Of a stretch of 59,700 bases of DNA, positions 15,325 to 36,102 are shown in pieces. Each line of letters begins with the position of its first letter. The first letter of the stretch is position 1. The position numbers and the translations under genes are program-made. The notes below the pieces were generated by a model. The model worked only from the letters and a program-made list of their open reading frames with translations. It ran no database searches and had not been told where the DNA came from. The stretch comes from an uncultured Burkholderiales bacterium. Its GTDB lineage: Bacteria > Vulcanimicrobiota > Xenobia > Xenobiales > JADMJV01. Location of the stretch: positions 1-59,700 of the forward strand of contig CAZYPN010000042.1 in NCBI GenBank assembly GCA_964649085.1. The letters run 5' to 3'.

Positions 15325-15490
15325 TCTCAGTTGTGCTTGAAGGCGTAAATGGTGCGGCTGATTGCGTTGAGGTCCTGGTGAAGCTGGCGCCGCTCGACCG
15401 GGCCCACCCAGCCGTTGTCTCCCTTGGCCGCGGCCAGCTCGCCGCGGGCGTCGCTGCGCATCTCCTTCAGGGTGGCCAGTTCGCTCTCGT
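15325..15490 (-). pseudogene. 5'-deleted, diverged copy of the repeated 88-aa small-protein gene
   Basis: Minus-strand translation gives ...SELATLKEMRSDARGELAAAKGDNGWVGPVERRQLHQDLNAISRTIYAFKHN, but a roughly 110-bp deletion joins the coding region directly to leader-homologous sequence (ctcgtgtgagttcctt); no start codon. Confidence 0.6.
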
Positions 15491-15608
15491 GTGAGTTCCT
15501 TCCGTTCGCTGCTGATGGACCCAGCTTACCGGGGCTCCCTCAGCAAGGGCTCAGGAGGTTCTCAAAGATGGCTCAAAACCTTGAAGAAAGGGTAAACCTT
15601 TGCTCGGA

Positions 15609-15959
15609 TTACAGGCGAAGGTCGAAAATTTGCCCCGGAAGCAGTATTCCATCGCCCCCGGCAGGGGCAGTTTGGGCGCAGCCACAAGGCCGTGCTTCCA
15701 GGCGGGCTAACTCGGCCTTGAGAGCGGCCAGTCGTTGGCGTTTCTGGTGTTCTTCGCTTCCCGGACCTTGATAGTTCATGAAGTTCATGCGGCCTTCCAA
15801 CCATCGCTCAAGAGAACGGATTTCCTGGCGGATGGCCACGCTACGTTGTTCTTGAAGAACCTCCCTTGCCTTTGCGAATACGCCCCTGCGGGGGACCCGA
15901 CTGCAGCTCGCCAGCCGCTGATTCAAGTCGCGGATGTCCTGGATGCCCGTTGTCTTCAT
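15609..15959 (-). CDS. hypothetical coiled-coil protein
   Basis: ORF 15609..15974, internal start MKTTGIQDIRDLNQRL; weak. Confidence 0.3.
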   Translation of the reverse strand: MKTTGIQDIRDLNQRLASCSRVPRRGVFAKAREVLQEQRSVAIRQEIRSLERWLEGRMNFMNYQGPGSEEHQKRQRLAALKAELARLEARPCGCAQTAPAGGDGILLPGQIFDLRL

Positions 15960-16101
15960 CTGCCTGTCCTCCATAGCCCACTGGTGATGGCTTTAGAGTA
16001 GCTCCTGGATTGTGCCCACTTTAAGAAAGACGCCGCTCGATTATTGACGAGACGTAAAACCTGCAGCCAAGACTTGCTGCCTGCCCGTCGAACCCACCCG
16101 G

Positions 16102-16578
16102 GTGCCCCGTTGTCGTGGACTGAGCCTGTTGGAAACCCTGGTGGTCCTGTTGCTCACTTCGCTGGTGCTGATGGTGACCGGATGGTACCTGCGCCGGGCC
16201 GTTCGCCTGGGCCTCACCCCGCTCGACCGCGGACGCGAGGCGCTGGAACTGGCTTCGCGACAGCTGCTGCTGGATGTCGAAGGTGCCCTGCAGGTCGAGT
16301 GGGCTTCGGGCCAGCTACTGCTGCGTCGGGCGCCGCTGGGTCGGCCGGGTCGGCTGCCCGCGACTGAGGCCAGTTGGAGCTACAACACACCGCTGGAAGA
16401 AGTGGTCTACCACCTGGCCGATGGGCAGCTGTGGCGCAACCTGGGGGGAAGGCAACTACGACTTTGTCCGGCCGAAGGATTTCAAGCTCAACTCGCGGCG
16501 GACGGTCGCAACCTTCAAATTCACCTCTGGTCGGGTTCCACCGTGGTGCGCCGCAGCCTCTACCGATGGGTTCTGTAG
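16102..16578 (+). CDS. prepilin-type N-terminal cleavage/methylation domain pseudopilin (GspJ/minor pilin-like)
   Basis: GTG start; MPRCRG|LSLLETLVVLLLTSLVL matches the class III signal peptide G-[FL]-[ST]-L-[IL]-E with Glu at +5. Confidence 0.65.
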   Translation: MPRCRGLSLLETLVVLLLTSLVLMVTGWYLRRAVRLGLTPLDRGREALELASRQLLLDVEGALQVEWASGQLLLRRAPLGRPGRLPATEASWSYNTPLEEVVYHLADGQLWRNLGGRQLRLCPAEGFQAQLAADGRNLQIHLWSGSTVVRRSLYRWVL

Positions 16579-16598
16579 AACCACGCCGCTCGGGAGAG

Positions 16599-17666
16599 AT
16601 GGAGCGCGAGTGGATGGAGTCTGCCACTCTGCCGGCCCAGCAGCGTTTTCTCTTCACGCGCCATCTTGCGCTGCTCTTCGGTTCGGGCGTGCCGCTGGTA
16701 CGTTCACTGGAAGCCCTGGCCGAACAGGCTGACCACCCCACCACAGCCGAGGTGCTGTGGTGTCTGCAGCGGGATTTGGAGCGAGGTCAGCCGCTGTCGC
16801 GCGCCTGCGCCCGCTTTCCCGAGATTTTCGGCCCCACCTACGTGGCGGTTCTGCAGGTGGCGGAGCAGACCGGTGCCCTGCATCGCAGCTTGATGCAGCT
16901 GGCCGAGTGGCTCGAGCAAGAGGCCGCCTCGCGGCGTTCCCTGGCTGCGCTGCTGGCCTATCCACTGTTCATCCTGGGACTGACGCTGCTGATGTCGCTT
17001 TGGATGTGTTGGGCTGTGCTTCCTCCGATTTTGGCCGGGCTCGAGGGTGTGGCCCTGCCCTGGCCTACTCGAGTCTTAATGCTGGCCACGGCTTTGCTGC
17101 AAAGGCCGCTGGGACTGGCTCTGGTCATCGCTCTGTCGTTGGGTGGGCTGGGTCTCAGCTACCGAACCTGGCTGCGCCCTCCGGTGGGACTGCGTTTCTG
17201 GCTCTGGCGACAGGTGGTCAAAGTTCCGGTTCTGGGTCTGGCGCTGCGCGATTGGGCCTTGCTGCGTTATTGCGCAGCCGCCGAAATTTTGCTCGAATCG
17301 GGCAGCAGCCTGGTCACCAGTCTCAGACTGGCGCCTCGAGCTTCCGGTAACCCCTGGCTGGCCGATGACAGTTCTCGTCTTTGCACGGCCCTCGAGCACG
17401 GCCAGGAACTGGCTGCGCTGCTGCAGGTTCGTCCCCTGCTCTATGGGAGGTTGTTGCCCGCGCTGGTGCTGGCCTATAGCGAGTCTGGCCTGCTTTCCAG
17501 GGGGTTTGCCCGGGCTCGGCGTGGGCTCGAGCAAGAGGTCGAGTCGCGCTTTAGCGTCCTGCGCCAGGCCCTCGAGCCCCTGTTGCTGGTGGTTCTGGGC
17601 GGGCTGGTGTTGTTCTTCTTGCTCAGCGTCATGCTGCCGCTCTATGCCCAGTTGCAACAGCTCTAA
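16599..17666 (+). CDS. type II secretion / type IV pilus platform protein GspF/PilC family
   Basis: ATG at 16599 in ORF 16374..17666; polytopic membrane protein; T2SSF-like cytoplasmic domain motifs (LALLFGSGVPLVRSLEALAEQ ... LQVAEQTGAL). Confidence 0.65.
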   Translation: MEREWMESATLPAQQRFLFTRHLALLFGSGVPLVRSLEALAEQADHPTTAEVLWCLQRDLERGQPLSRACARFPEIFGPTYVAVLQVAEQTGALHRSLMQLAEWLEQEAASRRSLAALLAYPLFILGLTLLMSLWMCWAVLPPILAGLEGVALPWPTRVLMLATALLQRPLGLALVIALSLGGLGLSYRTWLRPPVGLRFWLWRQVVKVPVLGLALRDWALLRYCAAAEILLESGSSLVTSLRLAPRASGNPWLADDSSRLCTALEHGQELAALLQVRPLLYGRLLPALVLAYSESGLLSRGFARARRGLEQEVESRFSVLRQALEPLLLVVLGGLVLFFLLSVMLPLYAQLQQL

Positions 17667-19870
17667 AGGGCCAGGCGGCAGCGGTGATACAGTTCCAGCA
17701 GCGAGGTCAATGGCTCCAATCCTAGCTCCTGGCGCAGCAACTTTTCGCAGAGTTGAAACTGGCGCAGCCCCGCTTCAGGTTGGCCCAGGGCCAGGTAGGC
17801 ACGGATTTTCAAAGCATGCAGCTCTTGCCTCAAAGGATCGATGTCCAGCCCCTGGCCTGCCGTTTCCAGGGTCTGGCGAGGTTCAAGCTCGAGTTGTCTG
17901 GCGGCCAGCTCCTGGAGGGCCTGCAACATGCGCTCTTCCCACTGGTGGCGAAGGCGCACGGCCCAGTCCAGATAGCAGCCCTGAAGAAAGGGACCCCGGT
18001 ATAGCGACAGAAGGCTGTCGCGCTGGGGCAGTGCCCAATGCTTCTCCAGTTCGCGGGCGTCGCACCAGACTTCCAGCTGGCTATCGAGTCGCAGCATCGA
18101 GCCCTCGCGCAGCAGCAACTCTCCTGGGCGTGAATCATCCTGGCGCAGCGCTCGCCGGATCGAGGTGGTGGCAGCATAGACGCTGCTCTTGCCGGCGTCA
18201 CGGGCCTCGGGCCAGAACTCTTCCACCAGCTCGTCCTCGCTGACCGGGCCTTGACGCAGGGCCAGATAGGCCAGCACAAACCGGGCCTTTTGAGTCTTGA
18301 AACGACGGTCGTCCAGGCGGCTTCCATTGAGGAAGATCTCCAGTGCGCCGAAGCAATGAATCCGCAGATAGACCCTGGGTACCCCGCCGCTGTGCAGGGG
18401 ACGACAACGGGCTGCCTTCTCCCCCAGTGCTTCCAGCAGAGTGGGTGAGATCAGATGGGGCGCCGCCTCCCACGAGCTGAGCAGGACCTCCAGCCCGGCC
18501 GTCTCCGACTGCAGCGCCCGGGCACTGTGACCGGGAAACTCTCCGGCCAGCGAGCACCAGGGGGCGGCGGGGCCCAGATCGGGTGCCACCCGCCACAGGG
18601 CTCCGATCAGCCAGTCGGCCTCCTCTTCCAGCAGAAAGCGCCGCGAGGGGTCGAGCACATAGCGGGCCGCCTCGGCCGAACTCTCGTCGGGGTCGCCGGC
18701 CAGCCGGGCCAGAGCCCAGAGCTCCGGTTCGCCCTGGCTGCGGCTGTCGTGCTCCAGCTGTTTCAAATAGGCCCTGGCCGAAGTGTGGGCGCTCTCGAGC
18801 AACAGACGGGCAATGCTCCAGCGGGCTCGCAGCGAGGCCCGGAGGCTGAGCCGGCGGTGCTGCTGTTCGGCCTCTTTGAGCTGCTCATACCAGCCCTCGC
18901 TGCCCGCTTTCCAGCCGCAGCGAGCCTCGCCCACCAGCGCTCGCTGTCGCAATAAAGAACCGTCCTGGCTGTGCTGGCGCAGGCGCTGGTAGGCCAGCGC
19001 CGCTTCCTGCCAGAGCTGGCGAGCCTCAAGGGTCTGGGCCAGCCCCAGCAATGGCAGCACTGCCGAGCGCTGCTCATCTTCCAGAGCCTGGGTTGCCACC
19101 AGACGAGCCGCTTCGCTGAGATCCCACTGATGTTCGTCGAGCAACTGACGAAGCTGCTCGTCGAGGGGGTCGGGATAGCTTCCCTCGTCTGGTGGATTGA
19201 CCAACCAGGCTGCCACCTTGAGGACTTGCTCTTCCAGCGGTTCCAACTGGCGCAAGGGGCCCAGCGCCAGCCGGTCCTGGCGGGCCAACCCATCGGGTAT
19301 GCTGGCCCAGCTCAGGTGGGCGGCCATTTCCAGCTGGCGGCAGCGAGCAAAAGGCAGTTCCAGGCGGCGCGCCAGATAGAAGGCCAGCAGCCCGGCTTCC
19401 AGCGCGTCACTGGCCAGCGAACGCGCCGATTCCTGGGCCAGCCAGCGCAGCGACTGCACCAGCCCGGAGAGTTGCTGGCGGCGAGCCTCTTCGCGCTGAC
19501 GGCTTTGCAGAATCTGGCGCACGCGCAGCAAAAGGTCGTGCAGCGAGAAGGGCTTTTTGAGATAGCCTCCCACATTGAGCTGCAGGGCTCTCAGGGTTTC
19601 CGCTTCGGTAGTGTAGCCCGATACTACCAGGCTCTCCAATTCGGGTTGCAGGTCTCGGGCCTGGCGAAGCGCCTCAAGGCCGTCCAGACCGGCCATGCGC
19701 ACGTCGGTCACCAACAGATCGTAGTCTTGCTGGGAAACCCGCTGCACCGCCTCCTCGCCGCTGGCAACCGCCTCGACAAAGTGCCCCTCATCGCCAAGCA
19801 CTTCGGCCAGCATCGTGCGCAGGTCGACATCATCTTCCAATATCAGGATGCGACGGCGTAAGGAACTCAT
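17663..19870 (-). CDS. response regulator: N-terminal receiver + central helical repeat region + C-terminal SARP-type winged-helix/BTAD
   Basis: REC motifs (ILILEDD...DLLVTDVRMAGLDG...KKPF); C-terminal IHCFGALEIFLNGSRLDD...FVLAYLALRQGPVSEDELVEEFWPE (OmpR-type wHTH) followed by a BTAD-like region (YLDWAVRLRHQWEERMLQAL...LALGQPEAGLRQFQ). Confidence 0.75.
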   Translation of the reverse strand: MSSLRRRILILEDDVDLRTMLAEVLGDEGHFVEAVASGEEAVQRVSQQDYDLLVTDVRMAGLDGLEALRQARDLQPELESLVVSGYTTEAETLRALQLNVGGYLKKPFSLHDLLLRVRQILQSRQREEARRQQLSGLVQSLRWLAQESARSLASDALEAGLLAFYLARRLELPFARCRQLEMAAHLSWASIPDGLARQDRLALGPLRQLEPLEEQVLKVAAWLVNPPDEGSYPDPLDEQLRQLLDEHQWDLSEAARLVATQALEDEQRSAVLPLLGLAQTLEARQLWQEAALAYQRLRQHSQDGSLLRQRALVGEARCGWKAGSEGWYEQLKEAEQQHRRLSLRASLRARWSIARLLLESAHTSARAYLKQLEHDSRSQGEPELWALARLAGDPDESSAEAARYVLDPSRRFLLEEEADWLIGALWRVAPDLGPAAPWCSLAGEFPGHSARALQSETAGLEVLLSSWEAAPHLISPTLLEALGEKAARCRPLHSGGVPRVYLRIHCFGALEIFLNGSRLDDRRFKTQKARFVLAYLALRQGPVSEDELVEEFWPEARDAGKSSVYAATTSIRRALRQDDSRPGELLLREGSMLRLDSQLEVWCDARELEKHWALPQRDSLLSLYRGPFLQGCYLDWAVRLRHQWEERMLQALQELAARQLELEPRQTLETAGQGLDIDPLRQELHALKIRAYLALGQPEAGLRQFQLCEKLLRQELGLEPLTSLLELYHRCRLAL

Positions 19871-19894
19871 GCGGGGCTCGCGAAGCCGCAGCCG

Positions 19895-22138
19895 GTGAAA
19901 TCGCTCTCTCGGGCTTTAACCCTGTCCACGGTGACGCTCACGCTGGCTCAGCTTTTTCTCTTTGCTCCCCGAGAACCTGCCTGGCCCGAACTGCTGCTGT
20001 GGGCTCTGGGCGCCGGGTTCTTGGAACGTTCCACGCGCAGTTTGCCGGGCTGGAGTTGGGGACGTTTTTCCCTGCAATTGCCCTGGTTGCTGGTGGTGCT
20101 GGTGGATCCGGGCAAGCCCTCGGCCCTGCCCTTGCTGGCCCTGCTGTCGCTGGCCTTGGTGTTGCGCCCGTGGTCGCACCCGCGACAGGAATTGCTGGCC
20201 GATCTCTGGGCCGCCCAGTGGCTGGCTCCCGGCTTGTTGCTCGGGCGCAGCCAGCCCCTGTGGTTGGTCTGGCCGTTGATCAGCCTGTTGGCCTTGCTCA
20301 CTCAAACCCGGGTCTTGCGCCAACTGGCCTCAACCCAGCCCGGGCGGGCCACCTGGATGCGCCTGGAACTGAACCTGATAGGTCAGCGCTGGGCGGCCTG
20401 GTGGGTGGCCAGTGCCGGGCTGTGGGTCAGTGGTCCTCTGTTGCTGAAGCTGCTCTGGCTGCCGGGGCTGCTGGGGCTGGCCTGGGGCGTGCAGAATGCT
20501 GCTTTCCGCTTGCAGGCCGAAAGCTTTGAACGCTTGCAGAACGATCTGAGGCGGGCCTTGCTCGATCGTGAGGCCTGGCAACGCAACGCCCGCCTGCTCG
20601 AGCAGTTGCATCAGCTGGCTCTGGGTCTCTCGGCTGCCGAGCGTCCCGAGCAGCTGTTGGAGCCCCTGCACCATTATTTTCCGCTGCGCAGCCTGGCGCT
20701 TTTCGGCCCCGATCAGCAGCCCCTGGCCGTGCGTTCACCCCAGACCCAGCTGCTCGAGAACCTCTGGCAATGGGGCGGTCACCTGGAACTTCGGGAAACC
20801 CGTGGGCCTCGCGTGCTGACCCCAGCCTGGCTCGAGCTGGAACCCCAGGCCTTGTTGCTTCCCTGTGGTGGGGGCTGGCTCTACCTGGGTCAGGAGGCGG
20901 GCGGCTGGAGCCAGGATGATTTCACCCGACTGGCTCCCGCTGTCCAGCGGGTGGCTCACCGCCTGCAGGAGTTGCTGGGGCAGCAGGGGGTGGATCAACA
21001 GCTGCTCGACAGTCACCAGCACGGCCAGCAGCTGCAGCAGACCATCGCATCGCAACAGTTCTTGCTGCACTGTGCCGAACGCCTGCTGCATCCGGTGGAG
21101 GGCGAGGCTCTCTGGGGCGAACTGGAGGGTTGCCTGAGTCAGGTTCTGTCACTGCAGTCTCTGTGCTGGATCCAGGCCGACCAGTTGCGAGCCCGGCGGG
21201 GGGCTTTGCCTCCGCAGCAGGCCCGGGGCTGGCTCTCGGGTCTGGGCCCTGGCACGGCCTACCTGGCCCGGGCCGACCGACCCCGCTGGCCTCAGGCTTT
21301 AGGAGACTATCCGGGAGTTGATAACCTGGTGGTCTTGGGGCTGGGGACGGAAGGCCACCTGTGGATCGGTTTCGCCGGTGACTTCACCCTTGAGCCCCAG
21401 CAGCTGCGGGCTTTGCAGGGCCTGGGCAACCTTTTTTCGGGGGCGGCCCAGAGGCTGCGCCTCATTCAGCAGTTGGAAGAATCGCGCCAGCTCTGGCTGA
21501 ATACCCAGAAGAGCCTGGGGCAGGCCCAGCTCGCGGCCGGTTTGGCCCACGAGTTGAACAGCCCCCTGGCGGCGGTCCAGCTGGCTCTCGAGGCCACCTT
21601 GCTGCGCTCGCCCAGCGAACGCCTCAACACCGCCCTCGACGCCTGCCAGCGCGCGCGCTCCATTCTGGAGCGTCTGCAACTGGTGACGCGGGAGCACCAG
21701 GAGGCCGCGCAGCATCAGGACCTCGTTCAAGTGTTGCGTTCGCTGGTCGAGCAGCTGCCCCAGCGCCCCGAGCCGCTGGCCTGGAGCGGCCCGGATTCGC
21801 TGCTGGTGGCGGCCCCTCGTCCGCTGCTCGAACAGGCGCTGCTGCCCCTGCTGACCAATGCCCTCGAGGCCGGCGGAGGCATGCAGCTGAGCTGGGGAGT
21901 GCAGGAAGACGGCCATGCCTGGGTTCGGGTAGCCGACGGCGGAGCCGGCATTCCGCTCGAGATCCGCTCGCGACTGGGCCAGTTTTTCTTCACCACCAAG
22001 GCTCTGGGACGCCACCTGGGGTTGGGGCTGGCCAGCCTGGATCAGGCCTGTCGACAGTTGGGTGGCAGCTGGCACATCGAATCACCGCCCCAGGGGGCCT
22101 GCCTGCGGCTGTGCCTTCCCACCCAGAGTGGCGGTTAA
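19895..22138 (+). CDS. sensor histidine kinase, polytopic membrane N-terminus
   Basis: GTG start; Trp/Leu-rich TM region; H-box LAHELNSPLAAVQLALEA; HATPase_c motifs (GGAGIPLEIRSRLGQFFFTTK...GLGLASLDQ); divergent from the REC-SARP regulator. Confidence 0.75.
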   Translation: MKSLSRALTLSTVTLTLAQLFLFAPREPAWPELLLWALGAGFLERSTRSLPGWSWGRFSLQLPWLLVVLVDPGKPSALPLLALLSLALVLRPWSHPRQELLADLWAAQWLAPGLLLGRSQPLWLVWPLISLLALLTQTRVLRQLASTQPGRATWMRLELNLIGQRWAAWWVASAGLWVSGPLLLKLLWLPGLLGLAWGVQNAAFRLQAESFERLQNDLRRALLDREAWQRNARLLEQLHQLALGLSAAERPEQLLEPLHHYFPLRSLALFGPDQQPLAVRSPQTQLLENLWQWGGHLELRETRGPRVLTPAWLELEPQALLLPCGGGWLYLGQEAGGWSQDDFTRLAPAVQRVAHRLQELLGQQGVDQQLLDSHQHGQQLQQTIASQQFLLHCAERLLHPVEGEALWGELEGCLSQVLSLQSLCWIQADQLRARRGALPPQQARGWLSGLGPGTAYLARADRPRWPQALGDYPGVDNLVVLGLGTEGHLWIGFAGDFTLEPQQLRALQGLGNLFSGAAQRLRLIQQLEESRQLWLNTQKSLGQAQLAAGLAHELNSPLAAVQLALEATLLRSPSERLNTALDACQRARSILERLQLVTREHQEAAQHQDLVQVLRSLVEQLPQRPEPLAWSGPDSLLVAAPRPLLEQALLPLLTNALEAGGGMQLSWGVQEDGHAWVRVADGGAGIPLEIRSRLGQFFFTTKALGRHLGLGLASLDQACRQLGGSWHIESPPQGACLRLCLPTQSGG

Positions 22139-25940: not shown

Positions 25941-27418
25941 TCGCCAGAGTTCGGCCTGACATCGGCCTTCCCTCGGCGCAGTTTGTGCTGCATTTCTCTC
26001 AGGCTGTTCTCAAAGACCCGACGCAGGGGTTGGTTCACATGCTTGGGACGGACAAAACCGGCCACGGCCCGAGTGGCCGAGCCCGAGAGATAGCCGCCCA
26101 CCACGGCAACCGGCAGCAGAAAGAACTTGCCGCCCACCAGGGCCAGCGCTGCGCAAGCCGCAGCCACGCCGACGGGTAGGCGTTCCGGCAACACCACTCC
26201 GGCCGCCATGCGATCGAGTTCGGCCAGAGGGCGGTCCAGAAAATCGGCCAGTTCCTCCCGCTTTACTTGAATCCAGTCCTGCAGGGCCTGGCCTTCCAGC
26301 AGCCGTTCACCCGTCAGGTCGGTCGGCAGCTCGGGCAGCGAGGCCACCACTTCCAGCCCGCTGCAGCGCCAGATCGACTCGAGGGGCGCCAGGCTGACGC
26401 CCCAGACCACGGGAATCAGACGATCACCGCCCACCCCGGCCATAAAGGCTGCCTGCAGACTTCCGCCTTCGCAGTGCAGGTCGAGATGGTGTGCGCTTTT
26501 ACCCGACCCTACCTGACCCGCAAGCTTGAGCCCCGGCAGGGGGCTCGGGCCAGCCCTCAGATGGCTGCGGTAGGGCACCTCGACCAGTTCTGGAAAGCAG
26601 CTCTTCATCCAGGGCAGCGAGTCGTCGACGCCGATACGGGCTCGCGACTCGATGCGGTTGCCAGCCGATTGGTCACAGAGCGGGCGCAGCAACATGCCGC
26701 GCGAGGCCAGGTCGGCGCCACTGATGTAGAGGTCGGCCAGAACCTGGTCCTGAAATGGTCTCGTGGAATAGACTCCTGAAGCACTGGGTACGACCCAGCC
26801 CCGCAGGCGCAGGTCGCCCTGCACAATGAAGGGCCCCAGGCTGCGTCTCACCAGCGTGACGGGGAACGGGCAAAAGCGCAGGCGGGAGCCGAGATATTCG
26901 GCGTCCAGCTGTAGGGAACGCGGCTTCTCCAGTTCCCAGGTCAATTTGTGGTCGGCCTGGATCTGGCGGTGCACCCTCAGCTGACATTCTTCGCCATCGG
27001 TGGGAACACCCAGCAGTTGACGTGGCTCATCGCCTTCCCAATGGGCCATCCAGAGCTGCTGGCCGCCGACGCCCAGCGCACCCACCACCGCGCGACAGTA
27101 ATAGGGCTGCCAGTGTTCGGGGCCGGCCGGCTTGAGCAGGTGGCTCTCCAGATCGCCCATCGCGCTCTCGAGGTCGACGGGGCCCGCAGGCAGCTCCAGC
27201 GACATCAGCAGGTGGGTGCCAAAATCCTGAATCGTCATCGAGCGTGCCCCCAACACGCATCCGGCCTGTACCAGCGAAAGCACGAAGCCACAATCGTGCT
27301 GGCGACCAAAGCGCCCCAACTTGGGCAGTGCTTCGGCCAGGTCGATGGAGAACTGACCTTTAGAGTGAAAGCAGCCCTCCTGATACTCGCGCTGTAAGTA
27401 GTCGTCGACCTCGGCCAT
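25937..27418 (-). CDS. hypothetical bitopic protein, first gene of the pseudopilin operon (possible GspL/PilM-N-like assembly component)
   Basis: 493 aa, ATG at 27418; C-terminal TM segment (LPVGVAAACAALALVGGKFFLLPVAVVGG); stop overlaps the next start; functional call is inference from context only. Confidence 0.4.
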   Translation of the reverse strand: MAEVDDYLQREYQEGCFHSKGQFSIDLAEALPKLGRFGRQHDCGFVLSLVQAGCVLGARSMTIQDFGTHLLMSLELPAGPVDLESAMGDLESHLLKPAGPEHWQPYYCRAVVGALGVGGQQLWMAHWEGDEPRQLLGVPTDGEECQLRVHRQIQADHKLTWELEKPRSLQLDAEYLGSRLRFCPFPVTLVRRSLGPFIVQGDLRLRGWVVPSASGVYSTRPFQDQVLADLYISGADLASRGMLLRPLCDQSAGNRIESRARIGVDDSLPWMKSCFPELVEVPYRSHLRAGPSPLPGLKLAGQVGSGKSAHHLDLHCEGGSLQAAFMAGVGGDRLIPVVWGVSLAPLESIWRCSGLEVVASLPELPTDLTGERLLEGQALQDWIQVKREELADFLDRPLAELDRMAAGVVLPERLPVGVAAACAALALVGGKFFLLPVAVVGGYLSGSATRAVAGFVRPKHVNQPLRRVFENSLREMQHKLRRGKADVRPNSGE

Positions 27419-27554
27419 GACCGGGAATTCGTGTCTCCTTTCAGGTTCTCCCGAGGAAAGTGTTTACAGCTCGGCAACATTTTTCCCATTGGCTTCTCAA
27501 TGGACGACCGCTGGACGGAGCACAATGACCCCAGCGACGGCAAGGAGGCGAACC

Positions 27555-28244
27555 ATGATCCACGGCTATCCCAACTACGGTTACTACCCAATGCAGGCGT
27601 CTTATGGCACGGGCCTGGGCATCAGCTACTCCGATTTACAGTTCGGCGGCGGGTTGTGTGCGGGGGGCGCCGGGGCCGATCAGTTCCTTCAGGGCTATTT
27701 CGAGATGGATCGAAAGCTCAAAGAAACCGAGCGCAGCATTGCTCTGGCCCGCAAGATGACCGGTCGGGCCGACCGCTCCGATGTGCAGTTGGTTCGAAGT
27801 GCTCGCAGCGGCCAGTTGAATCGGGCCGAGTTTGTGGCTCTCAGTTCACTGGAGAACGAGCTGCGCCGGGCCTTGGGAGAGGCCCGTGCCGACGGGGTAA
27901 TCGATGCTCGCGAGGAAGCTCGTATCCAGGAGCTGCAACAGCGGTTTGAGTCGACGCTGACCCGGTTCAAAGAGGGCGATTTCCAGCCCCAGGCGGGCGA
28001 CAGTCGGGCAGATCGTCAGTCGGGCGCTCTCTTTGACCTTCTGGCACAGGGCAAAATCACTTCGCGCCAGGCCCGTGACCTGCGCGCTATGATGTCCAAC
28101 AGCGCCGCTCAATCGGGCTTTGAACGCGGCCGCGCCGGTGTCGACGAGCTTACAGCCGATGATCTGGCCGCGGCTGACGACGAGCGCGCCGAGGACATTC
28201 AGGCCGCCCTGGAAGAGCGTTCAGGCGGGGGCCAGGGTCAGTAG
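27555..28244 (+). CDS. hypothetical protein (Tyr/Gly-rich N-terminus, charged helical C-terminus)
   Basis: ATG at 27555 preceded by a strong Shine-Dalgarno aaggagg (27542-27548); inside ORF 27417..28244. Confidence 0.5.
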   Translation: MIHGYPNYGYYPMQASYGTGLGISYSDLQFGGGLCAGGAGADQFLQGYFEMDRKLKETERSIALARKMTGRADRSDVQLVRSARSGQLNRAEFVALSSLENELRRALGEARADGVIDAREEARIQELQQRFESTLTRFKEGDFQPQAGDSRADRQSGALFDLLAQGKITSRQARDLRAMMSNSAAQSGFERGRAGVDELTADDLAAADDERAEDIQAALEERSGGGQGQ

Positions 28245-29060: not shown

Positions 29061-29139
29061 TCTCAATGGTTCGTCGCTGGCGGTGGCCCTCCCTGTTGGT
29101 GGCAGAAGGCCGAGCCGCAACAGGCACAAAAGAACCCGG

Positions 29140-29892
29140 GTGCTCACTTTTGTCGTACCTGCCCACAATGAGGCCGCTCATATTGAGGGATGCCTGGACA
29201 GCATCCATCAGGCCGCGGGCGAGCATCCCCACGAAGTGGTGGTTGTGGACGATGACTCAAGCGATTCCACCGCCCGGTTAGCCCGGGCAAAGGGAGCTGA
29301 AGTTGAGTCGGTTCAGCTGCGTCACATCGCCGCGGTGCGCAATACCGGTGCCCACCGAGCCCGAGGGGAGGTGCTGTTCTTCATCGATGCCGATACTCGC
29401 ATCTCTCGGCCCTATGTCGAGCAGGCTCTGCAGGCGCTGCGCGGGGGAGCGGTGGGGGGAGGGGCTCGATTTCGCTTCGATGGACCGCGCAGCCTCACCA
29501 CCTGGTGGTTGACCCTGCTACTGGACGCCATCTGCAGGCTGGCCAACCTGAGCGGCGGCTGTGCCCTGTTTTGCAGTCGAGACGCCTTCCGACGTATCGG
29601 AGGCTTTGATACCCGATACTTCGCCTCGGAGGAAATACACTTTGCGCGTCGCCTCAAAGGGCTTGGCCGCTTTCAGTTGGTTCGCGCCACGGTGTTGACT
29701 TCGGGGCGGAAGTTGAGGGCCTACTCGTTCCTTGAATTAGCCAGACTGGTGCTCAACTATGGCTTCCAAGGAGACCGTTTGTTGGAGCAGCGTGCCGGGC
29801 TTGAGCTCTGGTATGCACGCCGGGACGACCCTGGAGACACGCGAAAAAGCCCGGATGTCTCCGGGCTTTCTAAACCAACCTTGGGGCTTTAG
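29140..29892 (+). CDS. glycosyltransferase family 2
   Basis: Probable GTG start at 29140 (VLTFVVPAHNEAAHIEGCLDSI); VVVDDDSSD and FFIDADT GT2 motifs; the 3' end runs into the 415-bp repeat unit and its terminator hairpin. Confidence 0.7.
   Translation: MLTFVVPAHNEAAHIEGCLDSIHQAAGEHPHEVVVVDDDSSDSTARLARAKGAEVESVQLRHIAAVRNTGAHRARGEVLFFIDADTRISRPYVEQALQALRGGAVGGGARFRFDGPRSLTTWWLTLLLDAICRLANLSGGCALFCSRDAFRRIGGFDTRYFASEEIHFARRLKGLGRFQLVRATVLTSGRKLRAYSFLELARLVLNYGFQGDRLLEQRAGLELWYARRDDPGDTRKSPDVSGLSKPTLGL
29844..29869. terminator. intrinsic terminator hairpin (aaaaagcccggatgtctccgggcttt) downstream of small-gene copy A
   Basis: 7-bp GC stem, A5 upstream and T3 downstream; about 20 bp past the minus-strand stop. 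Confidence 0.6.
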
Positions 29893-30155
29893 TTGTGCTT
29901 GAAGGCGAAGATGGTGCGGCTGAGGGCGTTGAGGTCCTGGTGCAGGTTGCGTCGCTCCACCGGGCCCACCCAGCCGTTGTCGCCCTTGGCTTCGGCCAGT
30001 TCCTGGCGGGCCTCGTTGCGCATGTCTTTGAGGGTAGCCAGTTCGCTCTCGCTGATGCTGCCGCTGTTGATCCCCTGCTGCACGCGGGCGCGCTGGTTAA
30101 GGCCGCGAGCCTCGAGTCCGGGAGCGTAGACATTGCCGTTGCTGGTGTGAATCAT
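29889..30155 (-). CDS. small hypothetical protein, 88 aa (repeated gene, copy A)
   Basis: MIHTSNGNVYAPGLEARGLNQRARVQQGINSGSISESELATLKDMRNEARQELAEAKGDNGWVGPVERRNLHQDLNALSRTIFAFKHN; ATG start; own leader and terminator; family not recognised. Confidence 0.6.
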   Translation of the reverse strand: MIHTSNGNVYAPGLEARGLNQRARVQQGINSGSISESELATLKDMRNEARQELAEAKGDNGWVGPVERRNLHQDLNALSRTIFAFKHN

Positions 30156-30261
30156 CTTGTTGAGTTCCTTTCGTCCGCTGCTGATGGACCCAGCTTACGG
30201 CCCGGCTCTCAAGGGCGATTCAGGACCGGCTCAAAATGCGCTCAAACTCGTTGCCAGTGGG

Positions 30262-30720
30262 TTACATTCCCTGGTCTTTCCTGCGTCTCAGTTCGTGAGC
30301 ATCGGCCAGGTCTCTGGGACGCCCCGCCTTTTCCTTGTTTGCGATAAGGTCGTCCAGTCCAATGAATGCGGCCCGAATACTGGCGAGCTTGAGTTCCGTT
30401 CGGCGCTGCCAACAGTCTGAGAAACTCAAGCCTGCCAGATCGGTGAGCAGGTCGATGCGAACGGGTTCAACTCCCAATTGGACGACAAACTGCGGGGTCG
30501 TGAAGTCATCGACGCTTAAGTCCGTGGAGGCGAAACCAAATTCGTGCAGTGCCCGAAGGACAACCCTTGCGTTGTCGGGCGTACGCTCCAACCACAGGTC
30601 CAGGTCTTTGGTGTAGCGCGGCTCGGTGTACATCGACACGGCGTGGCCACCGACAATGAGGTATCGCACAGAGAACCGGTCGAAGAGTTCTAACAGGTCA
30701 AGGAAATCTTGACTGAGCAA
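30262..30720 (-). CDS. minimal nucleotidyltransferase-fold protein (AbiEii-like toxin candidate)
   Basis: 152 aa; GGHAVSMYTEPRYTKDLDLWLE matches the nucleotidyltransferase G[GS]...D-x-D motif; TTG start abuts the stop of the upstream small ORF. Confidence 0.55.
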   Translation of the reverse strand: MLSQDFLDLLELFDRFSVRYLIVGGHAVSMYTEPRYTKDLDLWLERTPDNARVVLRALHEFGFASTDLSVDDFTTPQFVVQLGVEPVRIDLLTDLAGLSFSDCWQRRTELKLASIRAAFIGLDDLIANKEKAGRPRDLADAHELRRRKDQGM

Positions 30721-30721
30721 C

Positions 30722-30910
30722 CTATCGCAGAGACCTGCGCTGAACTCGCCGCTCGAGGCGGCCCAGGGGAACTCTCCTCAGTTCCGCCTCGAGTTGCCGA
30801 AGCCGCTCCACCTGACGGAGTGCCTCTTGAGGATCGAACGGGGGCAGCGGGTCGACCGCGTCCAGTCGAGTTCGGGTAACGGTAAAACGACGCCGGGGTT
30901 GTTCTGACAT
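30722..30910 (-). CDS. small Arg-rich protein (62 aa), antitoxin-like partner
   Basis: Immediately upstream of and coupled to the nucleotidyltransferase-like gene; basic, helical (ALRQVERLRQLEAELRRV). Confidence 0.35.
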   Translation of the reverse strand: MSEQPRRRFTVTRTRLDAVDPLPPFDPQEALRQVERLRQLEAELRRVPLGRLERRVQRRSLR

Positions 30911-30973
30911 CCCCTCTTTGTTCTCAAAAGCTCAAGGCAACCCTTTCACCGTCGGGCAGGGGTTGCAGACACG

Positions 30974-31000
30974 CAAAAAAGCCCGGATGTCTCCGGGCTT
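30974..31000. terminator. intrinsic terminator hairpin downstream of small-gene copy B
   Basis: aaaaaagcccggatgtctccgggcttt. Confidence 0.6.
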
Positions 31001-31020
31001 TCTCGATCGTCCTTGGGGCT

Positions 31021-31287
31021 TTAGTTGTGCTTGAAGGCGAAGATGGTGCGGCTGAGGGCGCTGAGGTCCTGGTGCAGGTTGCGTCGCTCCACCGGGCCCA
31101 CCCAGCCGTTGTCGCCCTTGGCTTCGGCCAGTTCCTGGCGGGCCTCGTTGCGCATGTCTTTGAGGGTAGCCAGTTCGCTCTCGCTGATGCTGCCGCTGTT
31201 GATCCCCTGCTGCACGCGGGCGCGCTGGTTAAGGCCGCGAGCCTCGAGTCCGGGAGCGTAGACATTGCCGTTGCTGGTGTGAATCAT
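31021..31287 (-). CDS. small hypothetical protein, 88 aa (repeated gene, copy B)
   Basis: Protein differs from copy A by a single N->S substitution (NALSRT vs SALSRT). Confidence 0.6.
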   Translation of the reverse strand: MIHTSNGNVYAPGLEARGLNQRARVQQGINSGSISESELATLKDMRNEARQELAEAKGDNGWVGPVERRNLHQDLSALSRTIFAFKHN

Positions 31288-31407
31288 CGTTGTTGAGTTC
31301 CTTTCGTCTGCTGCTGATGGACACAGCTTACGGCCCGGCTCTCAAGGGCGATTCAGGACCGACTCAAAATGCGCTCAAACTCGTTGCCCAGGGGTTAAAA
31401 CCTCGGG

Positions 31408-31713
31408 CTATTTGATCAGCTCCATCGAGGTGGCTTCCTCGATCTTCATCTTGCCCCCCGCCTCCGGGATGTGTTTTTCCACGCTGTGCCAGCGAACGCG
31501 CACTTTCTTGCCGCGGAATTTTTCGGGTTTGTCCACCAGGGCGTCGAAGCTCTTGTGATTGCCTACGAAGAAGCTGTGGTCTTTGCCTTGGGCGTCGCGC
31601 ACCACCAGGTGGTAGTAGTCACCCGCCTGGACCTCACGGATGACCCCGGTCAGCACCTGATCGGCCCCGGCCAGACCGGCTAGAAGTAGCAGGGTTGCAA
31701 GCGTCTTTTTCAT
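31408..31713 (-). CDS. small secreted hypothetical protein
   Basis: Start MKKTLATLLLLAGLAGA (signal peptide) inside ORF 31408..31785. Confidence 0.45.
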   Translation of the reverse strand: MKKTLATLLLLAGLAGADQVLTGVIREVQAGDYYHLVVRDAQGKDHSFFVGNHKSFDALVDKPEKFRGKKVRVRWHSVEKHIPEAGGKMKIEEATSMELIK

Positions 31714-31783: not shown

Positions 31784-32197
31784 ATGGATCGATTTCCGCT
31801 GACCCAGGGCCGCTATGCCATGACCGAGCTGTGGGGCATCGACCTGGGCGAATTGGAGTTTCGCCGCCGTTTTGAGGATGGCTCGTTGGTGTTGTGGCGC
31901 CCGGGTCTGACGCTGTGGATCGAAGTCTACAGTTATCCGCCCCAGACAGCCCCCGAGGACCACCAACGCCAGCTCCGCCAGCGACGGGATCTGCCTCCCG
32001 GGGCCGAAGTGTTGGAAGCCGGGCCCGAGCGGTTCGGCTATGCTTTTCAGGAAGTCGAGCAAGGTCAGCAGCGATGGTCGCTGCAATGCTGGGTGTTCGG
32101 GGCCGAAGACCAGGTGATGATGGCCGTCTACTTCGACCGTGAGCAAGACCTTGAACTGGCTCTTCGACTCTGGAAGAGCATCTACCCGATCGATTAG
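31784..32197 (+). CDS. hypothetical protein
   Basis: ATG at 31784 (MDRFPLTQGRY) inside ORF 31712..32197. Confidence 0.35.
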   Translation: MDRFPLTQGRYAMTELWGIDLGELEFRRRFEDGSLVLWRPGLTLWIEVYSYPPQTAPEDHQRQLRQRRDLPPGAEVLEAGPERFGYAFQEVEQGQQRWSLQCWVFGAEDQVMMAVYFDREQDLELALRLWKSIYPID

Positions 32198-32637
32198 CTT
32201 TCGGGGGCGAAGACCCACACCGATTTCCCGTCGGCGTCGAGGATGGCTCGCTCGGCCGACAGCACGGGCTTTTCATCGACCTTGTTGACGAAAGTCTCAT
32301 ACTTGTAGGGGTTGTAAGTCACCAAGACCGGCGACTCTCCAGGCCCATCGCCACCCCTGACCACGTAGCGCTTCGACGGATAGCCCCGCAGGCCGATGCG
32401 CTCCAGCGTGCCCTCCACACCGGCGTGCACGTTCTTGCGCTGCTCTTCCAGCACGCGGCGGCGGCCGGCCTGGCTTACCTTCAGGTCGACGTCGCTGAGT
32501 TCCACCTGGTCGGCGTGGGCTACCACATGACCGGTCTGGCGATCTTTCACGCTCCAGCAGCCCTCGTGCAGGTTCTTGTAGACAAAGACCCGCCGCCCTT
32601 GCAGCTGGTCGGAACTCATGGCGTTTTGCAGTTTCAT
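32194..32637 (-). CDS. hypothetical protein
   Basis: 147-aa ORF, convergent with the previous gene; no family recognised. Confidence 0.4.
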   Translation of the reverse strand: MKLQNAMSSDQLQGRRVFVYKNLHEGCWSVKDRQTGHVVAHADQVELSDVDLKVSQAGRRRVLEEQRKNVHAGVEGTLERIGLRGYPSKRYVVRGGDGPGESPVLVTYNPYKYETFVNKVDEKPVLSAERAILDADGKSVWVFAPES

Positions 32638-32653: not shown

Positions 32654-34009
32654 TTACCCCTGAAATTTTTCTGTCAGGGCCAGGCTGAAGCGGAGGTTCG
32701 TGCCGGGTCCCTCGAGGCATTCCAACTGGCCGCCGTGGGCCTGGGCCAGGCGTTCGGCGATGGCAAGTCCCAGCCCACCCCCGCAGCGGCAGCTCAGTTC
32801 TTGCCGGTATTCCTCGGGCAGCCCCGGCCCGTTATCGGCGACCGTTACCTGCAAACGTCGCTCCCGAGGGGCAAAGCTCACTTCGATAAGTGTTCCGGGG
32901 GGAGTATGTTGGACAGCGTTCTCGATCAGGATTTGAAAGAGGTCGCGAACGCGCACGCGATCTCCCTGAACCCAGGGTTCCGACTCCAGGCCATGCAAGG
33001 CGATGCGGGTAGAGCGGGATTCTGCCAATTCTTGCACGGCGTCGAGCGTCTCCAACAGCGGCTCGCTGACGGGAAACTCGCTCGCGCATAATATCGGGGT
33101 TACGTCTTCCCAACGGGCCCAGTCGACCAGGCGTTGCACCACCCGGGCCACGTGAACGGTTTCGCGGCGGATCTTCTTCAGGTAGGCGGTTTCTTCACCC
33201 CGAACCACACCGTCCAGCAGAGCCTCGGTCCAGCCCTGCACGGCTGCCAGCGGAGTTCGTAGATTGTGTGAGGCTTCCACCATCAGCTGCTTGCGCGAGG
33301 CTTCGCTGCGCTCTGCCCTCTCTTTGGCCTCGCGCAGATGACGCACGGTGTCGTCCAGTCGGGCGGCCATCGAATTGAAGCTGACGGCCAGCTCGCGCAA
33401 TTCGCCGTGCTCGGCAACCTCGATGGGATGGGCGAAATCCTGCTGCTCGAGGGTGCGGATGGCCTCCTTCAACTTGAGAGCGGGACCGGCAATAGCACTG
33501 CTGGCGACCAGACCGGCCAGCAGAGTGAACAAACCCGAGAAGGTCACCGAGGCGGCCAGAACAGCTTGCAGACGAGGATTGCTGAACCAGGGCGGGCGCC
33601 TTTGAGGAAAGACAAAACAGGCCACCGCGGGGGGCACGGTTTCCAGGGGTAGCCATACCTCACGGCGATCGGGAAAGTCTCGGTGGTGGGGGCCGGGTGG
33701 GGTCGATTCGAACCGGGGCCGATGGGGACCGCGGTGAAGGATGAGCGTGCCCTGGCGAAACAGCAGCAGACTGCTGTCAGGGGGAAAGAAGTTGAAACGC
33801 ACGCAGTGTTCCAGCGAGAGCCAGCCCCCCGCACGGTAGGCGTCCATCAGGGGCCGCTTGAGTCGCTCGTTGTGCTGGTGGTCGACCGGCGGTCGATACA
33901 GCATCACGATATCGTAGCCGCCCAGCATCCAGAAAAGGCCCAGGCCCACCAGAAGGAACTGAAGCACCAGCACCAGGTAGGCCAGGGTCAGGCGCAGGCG
34001 CAAATTCAT
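32654..34009 (-). CDS. sensor histidine kinase
   Basis: Start MNLRLRLTLAYLVLVL (ATGA overlap with the regulator stop); H-box HNLRTPLAAVQGW; HATPase_c (DNGPGLPEE...GGGLGLAI). Confidence 0.8.
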   Translation of the reverse strand: MNLRLRLTLAYLVLVLQFLLVGLGLFWMLGGYDIVMLYRPPVDHQHNERLKRPLMDAYRAGGWLSLEHCVRFNFFPPDSSLLLFRQGTLILHRGPHRPRFESTPPGPHHRDFPDRREVWLPLETVPPAVACFVFPQRRPPWFSNPRLQAVLAASVTFSGLFTLLAGLVASSAIAGPALKLKEAIRTLEQQDFAHPIEVAEHGELRELAVSFNSMAARLDDTVRHLREAKERAERSEASRKQLMVEASHNLRTPLAAVQGWTEALLDGVVRGEETAYLKKIRRETVHVARVVQRLVDWARWEDVTPILCASEFPVSEPLLETLDAVQELAESRSTRIALHGLESEPWVQGDRVRVRDLFQILIENAVQHTPPGTLIEVSFAPRERRLQVTVADNGPGLPEEYRQELSCRCGGGLGLAIAERLAQAHGGQLECLEGPGTNLRFSLALTEKFQG

Positions 34010-34686
34010 AGTTCGAAGCGGTAACCTACTCCCCAGATCGAGCGAATGGGCACCAGTCCTAGCTTGCCGAGTTTGTCGCGCAAATTGCTGATGTGGACGT
34101 CGACCCGCCGGGAGTCGCCGGCGTAGTCTTCGCCCCAACAGCGGTTGAGAAGTTCCTCGCGGGTGAAGTTTCGGCCAGGATTTGCTACCAGGTGACGGAG
34201 CAAGTCATACTCTCGCCGGGTGAGGTCGATGGGTTCTCCGTGATACAGGGCCAGCCGCCGCTCAGCGTCGACCACCAAAGGCGAAAGAGGCGCGAGGTGG
34301 CCTTGACTGAGCACTTTGGAACGTCGAATGAGGGCCTTGACTCGGGCCAGCAACTCGCGTGGCGAGAAGGGCTTGGTAACATAGTCATCGGCCCCGATCT
34401 CCAATCCGGAAACTCGGTCGGCTTCATCTCCTCGCGCCGTAAGGATGAGGATTGGCACGGCGCTCGCCTCGCGCAGTCGACGGGTGACCTCGAGCCCACT
34501 CAGCCCTGGCATCATCAGGTCGAGAATCACCAGGTCGGCGCCTTCCCGAGCAAAAGCCAGCCCCTCTCTACCGTCGCGAGCCAGACGAACTTCGTAGCCC
34601 TCGTGGTCTAGATAGCGGCGAATCAAAGAGCGAATCTCTTCGTCGTCGTCGACGACCAGCACTTGATAGGCAGAGGCCTCGGCCAT
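34006..34686 (-). CDS. OmpR-family response regulator
   Basis: VLVVDDDEEIR...DLVILDLMMPGLSG...KPF receiver; C-terminal wHTH ...IWGVGYRFE. Confidence 0.85.
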   Translation of the reverse strand: MAEASAYQVLVVDDDEEIRSLIRRYLDHEGYEVRLARDGREGLAFAREGADLVILDLMMPGLSGLEVTRRLREASAVPILILTARGDEADRVSGLEIGADDYVTKPFSPRELLARVKALIRRSKVLSQGHLAPLSPLVVDAERRLALYHGEPIDLTRREYDLLRHLVANPGRNFTREELLNRCWGEDYAGDSRRVDVHISNLRDKLGKLGLVPIRSIWGVGYRFEL

Positions 34687-34711
34687 TCAGTCGATCCACC
34701 TCCCCCGCTGG

Positions 34712-35974
34712 TTAAAAGGCGACACGATCATAGCCTTGCAGGTCGGAGGCGAACTGCCCTCCCTGCACATACTGAATCACCTGTTGATAGCGATTCAGAT
34801 TGTCGATGGTTCCGCTCTGGATGATGTCCTGCAAAGACAAAGCGCCGCTGTTCAGGGCCTTGGTGATGGCTCCGACGGTCTGCACGTCGGTCTCGCCAAC
34901 GCCGGGCTGGTTAGCCAGCTCACCCAGCCCCCGCTGGAGCAGCAAGTCTTTCAGGCCGGGATTGTTGTAGAAGCCCGGCCCCTGCATCAGGTTGCCCTTG
35001 AAAACAGAAGCCACCTGCACAAACAGTTGGGCATCGGGGCTCATGGTCTGCATCGCCTGGGCTCCAGCCTGCAGCCCCTGAGCACTGAGCGGGTCGTTGT
35101 TGCTGGCATAGGCGGCGAACTGATAAGCGTAGAGCCTGCCCACGTTGGCATGCCAGAGCTGGGGGCTTTCCACTCCGGCAAAGCGAGTGCCGGCGATGCC
35201 GTCGGACTGGCGCACGCTGGTCTGGCCTTGCAAGGCGCCTCCGGCCACCTGGGCCTGCAAGTAGCTGGCGAAATCCCCCCCGTCGGAGGGAAAGGGCAAC
35301 GCCGGGCCCGTCGGGGTCGAACTGCCACCGTAGCCGGTAGAACTGCCAGCGACGGCCCCGAAATAGCCGAGGGGGGCGGTGCCTGCTCCCAACACCGAGG
35401 AGTAGTCGACACCAGCATAGATGGCACCGTTTCCTGTGCCGAAAGCCGAGGTGCCGAAATTGGAGGTTCCGAACAGAGAGGAGGGGTCAAATCCCGTGCT
35501 GCCCCCAGAGGACCCGTAGAGCAGCGAGTTCCAGTCGTTGCCTCCGCCGCCCAGAATCGAGGCCGGATCAAAGCCCCCATAGGCACTGAAGCCGCCCAGG
35601 AGCGAGGAAGCGTCGAAGGCCGAGGAGGCGATGCCACCGTTTAGAATCGAGGAAAAATCGTTGCCTCCGTCGGGGGAGAAAGCGAAACCCGCGGAGGCGG
35701 TCCCACCGCCAAGGAGGGACGAAAAGTCAGACGGATTTGGGGCACCGAACGATGGGGCGCCGAGCAATCCGCCCCAGCCGGAAGACAGCTGTTGGAAGGC
35801 GCCCAGCATTTGCTGGAGCGTCTGCACCAGGGAGACAAGGCTGCCGGCCTGGGAGAAGCCCACCGGTGACCCCCCTGCAAACTGGACACTGGATGAAAAG
35901 GAACCAAAAGTCTGAGCCTGACTGATACCGGACTGGAAGGGAAAACCACCTAGAATCGCCACCGCAACCTCCAA
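34712..35974 (-). CDS. Gly/Ser-rich repeat protein (F-[DA]-x-SS-[LI]-LGG repeats)
   Basis: 420-aa ORF; at least 7 degenerate repeats (FSSLLGGG, FSSILNGG, FDASSLLGG, FDPASILGG, FDPSSLFG...); structured C-terminal about 150 aa. Confidence 0.45.
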   Translation of the reverse strand: MEVAVAILGGFPFQSGISQAQTFGSFSSSVQFAGGSPVGFSQAGSLVSLVQTLQQMLGAFQQLSSGWGGLLGAPSFGAPNPSDFSSLLGGGTASAGFAFSPDGGNDFSSILNGGIASSAFDASSLLGGFSAYGGFDPASILGGGGNDWNSLLYGSSGGSTGFDPSSLFGTSNFGTSAFGTGNGAIYAGVDYSSVLGAGTAPLGYFGAVAGSSTGYGGSSTPTGPALPFPSDGGDFASYLQAQVAGGALQGQTSVRQSDGIAGTRFAGVESPQLWHANVGRLYAYQFAAYASNNDPLSAQGLQAGAQAMQTMSPDAQLFVQVASVFKGNLMQGPGFYNNPGLKDLLLQRGLGELANQPGVGETDVQTVGAITKALNSGALSLQDIIQSGTIDNLNRYQQVIQYVQGGQFASDLQGYDRVAF

Positions 35975-36102
35975 CGAGAGAACTTAAGTCATTATTCAGG
36001 AGATTTGTAAAGAAAGTTCCAGGGTTCGCGCTTCCGGCCCGATTATAATCTCGCAACAATCGGAGTCCCAGGAGCCAGAGCGTCAGAGTTGAATCCTCAT
36101 CG

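Follow-up and report, generated by a model that had tools for sequence, protein, structure and literature searches.

The window analysed here is a whole contig of 59,700 nt (CAZYPN010000042.1) from the metagenome-assembled genome (MAG) of an uncultured bacterium placed in Vulcanimicrobiota, and it carries two near-identical direct repeats of about 430 bp with a toxin-like gene pair between them. As a transcription unit, each repeat is complete and self-contained, and its product is a conserved 88-aa helical protein. The explanation that we find best, and hold to be probable with some room for doubt, is that this self-contained paralogous unit, equipped with an activator-type promoter, was duplicated around a mobile MenAT1-like cassette and was subject to gene conversion afterwards. 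The locus looks like a product of ordinary genome dynamics, not like a new kind of element.

Pairwise alignment places copy A at 29836-30264 (429 bp) and copy B at 30968-31397 (430 bp), slightly longer than first reported, with a period of 1132-1133 bp from start to start. The two copies, both on the minus strand, differ by 13 substitutions, five of which are clustered in a 7-nt patch at 29872-29878, and by one 1-nt insertion or deletion (indel) just upstream of the start codon, while 227 bp (29930-30156) are identical between them. A 53-nt repeat probe found only these two sites in the window, against 0 expected from 100 shuffles. Both copies contain the promoter, the 88-aa gene and a terminator. 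The genes (29889-30155 in A and 31021-31287 in B, minus strand) are open reading frames (ORFs) with an ATG start, and their products are one residue apart (N76S in B relative to A). The terminator hairpin, GCCCGGA-GACA-UCCGGGC, stands 3' of each 88-aa gene, at 29844-29871 in A (-22.6 kcal/mol, z -3.5) and at 30975-31003 in B (-25.8 kcal/mol, z -4.3), and it is bidirectional because an A-run flanks it on one side and a U-run on the other. A standard terminator scan missed both hairpins, probably because the A/T runs pair and lengthen the stem, as they do in the folds. From B toward A, the genes between the copies are a 62-aa ORF and, 1 nt on, a 152-aa nucleotidyltransferase (NTase), both on the minus strand. 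The original prediction had described two near-identical modules flanking such a cassette, each with an intrinsic terminator and an ATG-started 88-aa ORF whose products differ by one residue, and had spoken of the duplication of a whole regulatory unit; the alignment, the probe search, the ORFs and the hairpin scores agree with it on all of these points. Features that it missed are the strand of the genes, a third and truncated copy, and the overlap of a neighbouring gene into repeat A.

That neighbour, on the left, is a GT2 glycosyltransferase ORF (29083-29892, plus strand; from the ORF list and Pfam), which is convergent with the 88-aa gene of copy A and has hairpin A in common with it. The ORF passes through the hairpin and overlaps the 88-aa gene by 4 nt, so that the module supplies its last 19 codons. 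On the right, a 101-aa protein with a signal peptide (lipoprotein; 31408-31713, minus strand) has its stop codon ~10 nt before module B. The limits of the repeat are the same as the limits of homology to an older paralogue in the window, copy C, and they also match the ends of the cassette.

The NTase (30262-30720, minus strand) is assigned by Pfam to DUF2204 (E 5e-7) and DUF6036 (E 2e-5), and its segment VGGHAVSMYTEPRYTKDLDLW has the pol-β motifs I and II (hG[GS]x9-13Dh[DE]h, with a third carboxylate). Aligned over 35 sequences, the NTase shows no variation at G24, D39 and D90 and conservation of at least 90% at G25 and D41, and it has a conserved C-terminal set, K129, R134, D137 and D140, possibly a counterpart of motifs III/IV. 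The best PDB matches of the AlphaFold2 model (pLDDT 94) are to MenT1, alone and in the MenAT1 complex (8an5_B/8an4; E 2.4e-6, TM 0.68). A match to the PADLOC AbiEii profile (E 0.0026) is confined to the N-terminal motif region. The 62-aa gene (30722-30910, minus strand), an antitoxin-like partner 1 nt upstream of the NTase start, has homologues that likewise stand immediately upstream of NTase homologues in two other settings, L024 (47%) and L025/L026 (68%); such labels denote the loci fetched for comparison. The MenT1 fold match and the conservation of the pair in other contexts support the original prediction of an NTase-fold gene with a coupled small partner of toxin-like character. We thus describe the cassette as toxin-like by fold and architecture, and the NTase would, on the modelled fold, be predicted to be toxic.

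The cassette moves independently of the modules: the pair recurs without the 88-aa module, beside a DDE transposase in L024 and beside a methyltransferase in L025/L026, and the DNA homology runs from the ATG of the partner gene to the stop codon of the NTase, with no shared non-coding flanks. In the window, the cassette has 57 nt of upstream DNA of its own (30911-30967), in which no convincing promoter is visible and whose fold is not significant (z +0.5). This spacer holds TTGAGCTTTTGAGAA, with two TGAG cores 8 nt apart, unlike the 11-nt phase of the module repeats described below. A transposon or an integron cassette was considered and rejected, as neither terminal inverted repeats nor target duplications nor attC were found at the cassette, where the only inverted repeats are the terminator hairpins. 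No transposase or integrase was found among the Pfam-scanned ORFs within ~3 kb on either side.

Comparison with relatives bears on the history of the two copies. Between L006, which carries the orthologue of copy A, and the window, 22 of 471 module positions differ, as against 7 of ~1,062 elsewhere. Copies A and B of the window agree with each other at 11 sites in 30000-30100 where the positional orthologue, copy A of L006, differs, and the patch at 29872-78 is unique to copy A of the window; in relatives, copy A equals copy B there. These patterns, read from the aligned copies, indicate recombination (gene conversion) between the modules. The duplication claimed by the original prediction therefore stands, while its being recent is not required, the similarity being at least partly kept by recombination. 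A stricter version of this history starts from old tandem paralogues around an old cassette and ascribes the near-identity wholly to gene conversion, with tracts that stop at the promoter and at the terminator. We regard it as possible, though clearly the less likely account. It is in keeping with the excess divergence inside the module, with the states common to A and B, and with the homology limits, which are the same for A versus C (~80% identity) as for A versus B. It fits less easily with the non-coding parts, which have no obvious constraint and are still ~97% identical, and the identity of copies A and B at the 29872-78 patch in relatives is explained equally well by a young duplication.

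The duplication with later gene conversion that we favour would have used a variable site. In L027 (85% DNA identity), the lipoprotein gene, the module and its terminator are followed by unrelated sequence and by a new gene start, MKTYNVHEAKT, which we presume to resemble Phd/YefM antitoxins; with 11 residues this is a lead and not a test. In L028, with a lipoprotein orthologue of 69%, there is no module at the site. The position after the module terminator therefore varies between relatives, and it may be a spot that receives small cassettes. The module-cassette-module arrangement could then have formed through paralogous copies in either of two ways, by a tandem duplication whose junction holds the cassette or by Campbell-type integration of a circle made of module and cassette, and both copies would since have been kept near-identical by gene conversion.

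The second of these routes can be taken further, to a 1132-bp circle that integrated into a resident single module and can be excised again, the modules serving as portable homology arms. The repeat ends match the cassette ends exactly, several module paralogues per genome supply homology, and in L027 the same place is occupied by a different cassette. Moreover, L019 has the form of the predicted circle: it is a 1209-bp SPAdes contig (window 29844-31051) whose two ends overlap exactly over 77 nt, and its 1132 bp of unique sequence equal the repeat period. L019 represents either a de Bruijn graph loop into which the chromosomal repeat has collapsed or a circle of module and cassette that has been excised, and the data fit both alike; as a chromosomal direct repeat gives a circular graph path too, the contig is not diagnostic. 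The cassette homologues in L024-L026 have no adjoining module, and a search for a single-module "empty" allele between the lipoprotein gene and the GT2 gene found no such allele, only L027, a short contig that ends 130 bp past the module, and L028, which has no module. We therefore judge a re-excisable circle as the origin of the locus to be unlikely.

A further rearrangement was seen in L005 (ERZ27240674, MEGAHIT k141), in which window positions 30798-30505 are joined to 30031-29487. Relative to the window, 473 bp are deleted here, and the break lies at an imperfect microhomology of ≤8 bp. The contig encodes a product (P0018) that begins with NTase residues 1 to ~70 and continues in frame into the C-terminal half of the 88-aa protein, and the deletion would remove the C-terminal half of the toxin together with the promoter of copy A. 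The fusion is probably a real population variant.

The promoter assignment comes from the ~110 bp upstream of the 88-aa gene, which we aligned over 12 distinct loci. Four heptads with invariant TGA cores (TTGAGCG, TTGAGCS, CTGASNN and YTGAGRN) are present in all 12, without indels in the array, while the sequence between the heptads varies freely; the TGA[GAC] cores are spaced 11, 11 and 11 bp apart in each of the 14 copies in which the spacing was checked. In 12/12 loci heptad 4 ends exactly 8 bp before a TAnnnT hexamer. A conserved cATC lies 5-6 nt past this hexamer, and 36-44 nt with a GGAA ribosome-binding site then lead to the ATG. In copy A, the heptads TTGAGCG, TTGAGCC, CTGAATC and TTGAGAG, in 11-bp phase, form the putative activator array (30206-30245, minus strand), and TAAGCT, 8 bp past heptad 4, is the putative -10 hexamer (30192-30197, minus strand). 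The corresponding positions in copy B, on the same strand, are 31339-31378 for the four-heptad array and 31325-31330 for TAAGCT. Among all fetched loci the four-core motif occurs solely in front of family genes, and a three-core test pattern matches only the three module copies in the window (0.07 matches expected by chance). Another conserved element, GGTTAACC-like, precedes heptad 1 by ~18 nt, and in copy A the stop codon of the NTase gene has taken the place of half of it (ATGTAACC).

Read from the sequence, the hexamers within the heptads would give spacers of 9 or 20 nt to the -10 box, not 17, and none is at a usable -35 distance; heptad 4 was rejected as a -35 box for its 9-nt spacer. 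A σ54 promoter was likewise rejected: the TGGCA-N-TTGA of copy A already differs in copy B, and the other aligned loci have no TGGCA. We infer that the upstream region is mostly an activator-dependent promoter with the geometry of the SARP/OmpR-PhoB class. A winged-helix activator, of the OmpR/PhoB-type or SARP-like response-regulator kind, would bind the heptads as tandem protomers and recruit RNA polymerase. Transcription would then start near 30185 in copy A, where the conserved cATC lies, and near 31318 in copy B, with a 5' untranslated region of ~30 nt, and would end at the bidirectional hairpin.

This assignment leaves only ~30 nt of the conserved leader predicted to be transcribed, while the original prediction had suggested that the leader could be a cis-regulatory RNA. 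The latter suggestion did not hold up. RNAalifold found 0 consensus pairs over the 12 loci, the single-sequence fold of the copy A leader was no better than shuffles (z +0.68), and the Rfam E-value scan of the region returned only AgvB matches of 21-24 bits, against a gathering score of 56, located on the terminators. Where the original prediction had proposed a covariation and structure analysis of the leader, the pattern conserved over the same loci consists of four invariant TGA cores in 11-bp phase and a -10 box, as in a promoter that is bound by protein. That the conserved ~100 nt are nevertheless a transcribed leader, whether it works as a riboswitch or attenuator or is bound, at phased UGAG repeats, by an RNA-binding protein, has in its favour that the region is conserved across loci with only ~65% protein identity and that phased short repeats are the feature by which some RNA-binding attenuation proteins, TRAP and HutP among them, recognise their leaders. 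We consider it improbable, because in addition to the null folding results there is no terminator/antiterminator pair in the leader, the invariant TAnnnT lies exactly 8 bp past the last heptad, and the ~25 nt of module above heptad 1 are too little for a separate promoter within the repeat.

All four repeat junctions recur in contigs from other samples. L006 (ERZ27240673, 98.1%) spans the NTase gene, copy A and the GT2 gene, and L019 (ERZ794928, 99.2%) spans the 3' end of B, terminator B, the 62-aa gene, the NTase gene and A, including both the junction of terminator B with the cassette and the junction of the NTase gene with A. The junction between the lipoprotein gene and B, with B variants, is found in L020-L023, of which L021-L023 (99.8-99.9%) cover the right flank and reach 8-66 bp into B. 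Variants of the A type are linked to the flank of A, and those of the B type to the flank of B. These junction contigs come from separate samples and together require at least two copies of the module, so that the assembly artefact, one of the outcomes that the original prediction had named as refuting it, a collapsed or duplicated join over what is really a single module, can be dismissed as highly improbable, even though the window is a MAG contig and the circular-looking L019, with its unique length equal to the repeat period, indicates that short-read graphs do collapse the region.

The 88-aa protein belongs to a family that is multi-copy in Vulcanimicrobiota/Eremiobacterota-type genomes. 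We found 19 homologues with 53-97% identity, from sources that include Vulcanimicrobiota-labelled MAGs and an "EREM" isolate, and 27 residues are invariant, including those of KG-NGWVGP-ER. The AlphaFold2 model, a confident one (pLDDT 86), consists of a β-hairpin and three helices. Pfam, NCBIfam and PADLOC gave no match to the protein, and sequence and fold searches gave nothing significant in the PDB. A profile search for the domain found 2,214 cluster representatives (E ≤ 1e-3), many of which hold 2-9 tandem copies of a domain of ~75 aa, and some of those inspected have signal peptides; the matches of distant multi-repeat relatives to TerB, DUF533 and YmfL were weak, all below threshold, and were not used. 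The protein is therefore conserved outside this genome, a point that the original prediction had left to a homology search and whose failure it had named as refuting, and its notion of an autonomous small-gene module agrees with a gene that is self-contained and present in three copies in the window and at three loci, on three contigs, in one other MAG. The gene is monocistronic in the window. In distant lineages it forms an operon with a gene, ~20-50 nt further on, for a conserved acidic helical protein of ~125 aa with the motifs PAEKVL and GQLDGIYGLLD (L001 6297-6674, L009 6298-6675 and L010 6303-6680; also L011, L012, L013 and L016), which has no Pfam match and no homologue in the window. 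A 275-aa ORF (27417-28244, plus strand) contains a segment, SGQLNRAEF...EARADGVIDAREE, that resembles the 88-aa domain motif to the eye; as a relative of the domain this ORF was rejected, the hhalign comparison being not significant (probability 4.6%, E 0.009).

The third module, copy C (15269-15603, minus strand), is 5'-truncated and ~80% identical. It has kept its heptads (15537-15576), the -10 box and the terminator, and it lacks the start codon and ~36 codons, leaving a 44-aa remnant ORF at 15327-15461. In L007, which is syntenic with 16083-19946 (pilin-like, T2SS-F and REC-BTAD genes), an intact 88-aa gene occupies the position of this copy. In the window, the adjoining block (15609-19870) contains a pilin-like N-methyl protein (16102-16578) and a T2SS-F protein (16374-17666) and ends with a 735-aa protein (17663-19870) that has REC, weak Trans_reg_C and BTAD domains. 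The latter, with its histidine kinase, is one candidate for the regulator of the modules, and in L007 it is syntenic with the intact 88-aa gene. A REC-BTAD architecture of this sort resembles that of SARPs and is unusual outside Actinobacteria; the histidine kinase gene (19895-22138) is divergent from it. The other candidate is an OmpR-type response regulator (34006-34686) with its histidine kinase. These two genes, together with one for a 420-aa protein, form a block (32678-36085) that is absent from the 85%-identical L027, which joins window position 36086 to 32677 with 28 nt between, a 3.4-kb indel adjoining the locus. Near this block, at 32194-32637 (minus strand), is a homologue of mycobacteriophage L5 gp82 (PF25735, E 4e-36) with 98.6% protein identity in L027, while its neighbours have only 78-93%.

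Several observations weigh against the history and the promoter that we propose. The predicted start site and the putative activator are argued from geometry, and the family genes in L001 and L008-L011 have no response regulator gene closer than 6 kb. The close relative L027 keeps the heptads and lacks the OmpR-type two-component block next to the locus, and the candidates in the window therefore remain candidates only. For the cassette, the non-toxin NTases TM1012, LnuA and ANT(2'') follow closely as the next neighbours of the NTase by fold, so that a non-toxic NTase is possible; the match to Pfam AbiEii/DUF1814 (PF08843) is below threshold (E 0.069, 13.5 bits versus a cutoff of 22.5), and for the 62-aa partner neither Pfam nor PADLOC nor the PDB, MenA1 included, yielded any similar annotated protein. 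The identical central tract of the modules is also coding, and purifying selection thus explains part of the identity. Finally, the contigs fit a duplication followed by insertion, a Campbell integration, or old paralogues homogenised later alike, and the order of events given here is the one that we would deduce and not one that we observe.

A broader proposal would join these threads. The modules would be the regulon targets of a SARP-like response regulator with REC, winged-helix and BTAD domains; at the same time, they would act as multi-copy homology arms that mobilise promoter-less toxin-antitoxin cassettes through Campbell-type integration and excision, with L019 as the intermediate, and the trapped pair would prevent the collapse of the duplication. 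We put this forward as speculation and think it unlikely to be right. If true, Vulcanimicrobiota/Eremiobacterota would have a regulon not known before, whose regulator reads four TTGAGC heptads in phase.

Each component of the locus is of a known kind, namely a MenAT1-like pair, a phased-repeat promoter of the SARP/OmpR type and gene-converting duplicates. What is new is modest: the four-heptad TTGAGC promoter, its link to a small-protein family in an uncultured phylum, and the module-cassette-module layout. The promoter, in which the four phased heptads keep a constant distance of 8 bp to the -10 box, offers a testable architecture in a phylum where experimental genetics is almost lacking, and it is tied to a widespread helical domain of ~75 aa that occurs in more than 2,000 protein clusters and is not covered by Pfam. 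In the module-cassette-module layout, the cassette could be excised by homologous recombination and, conversely, collapse of the duplication would be costly. As a natural example of a toxin-antitoxin pair locked between gene-converting direct repeats, the locus bears on how cassettes spread and how they stabilise duplications. Current concepts are unchanged, and the value of the locus is for annotation, in the 88-aa family, the MenAT1-like DUF6036 pairs and the correction of the "leader RNA".

The locus can be set beside four known systems. In SARP sites, the repeats are 11 bp apart and the -10 box follows the 3' repeat at a distance of 8 bp (PMC10936776; PMC5930380). This geometry is a close relation of that of OmpR/PhoB boxes. 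The modules share with SARP and OmpR-PhoB promoters the 11-bp heptads, the 3' heptad at 8 bp from the -10 box and the lack of a usable -35 element; they differ in having four heptads, where two or three are usual, with a TTGAGC core. The targets also differ, being an antibiotic cluster or the phosphate regulon in those systems and a family of small-protein genes here, in a phylum without characterised regulators of this kind. The MenAT1 antitoxin is a 68-aa protein without a DNA-binding domain, encoded upstream of its toxin (PMC10435456). In the cassette, as in MenAT1 of M. tuberculosis (Rv0078B/Rv0078A), a small protein (62 versus 68 aa) without a recognisable DNA-binding domain is encoded directly upstream of a pol-β-fold NTase, and this NTase, whose best structural match is MenT1, conserves the GG...DxD motif and the C-terminal K/R/D/D set. 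It is shorter than MenT1 (152 versus ~190 aa) and belongs to DUF2204/DUF6036, not to DUF1814.

Concerted evolution by gene conversion is known from duplicate genes such as tufA/tufB in Salmonella. As in that case, the paralogues here are near-identical, the orthologue in a related strain differs, and the divergence is concentrated in the repeat; unlike in that case, a whole module from promoter to terminator appears to be converted, and the copies are 0.7 kb apart with a toxin-antitoxin pair between them. Chromosomal toxin-antitoxin cassettes, for example those of Vibrio superintegrons, stabilise neighbouring DNA. Here, too, a putative toxin-antitoxin pair lies between direct repeats, whose recombination would delete the pair, a loss that would be counter-selected. 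In contrast to the superintegrons, the locus lacks an integron integrase and attC sites, the ends of the cassette carry no inverted repeats, and the direct repeats are functional genes.

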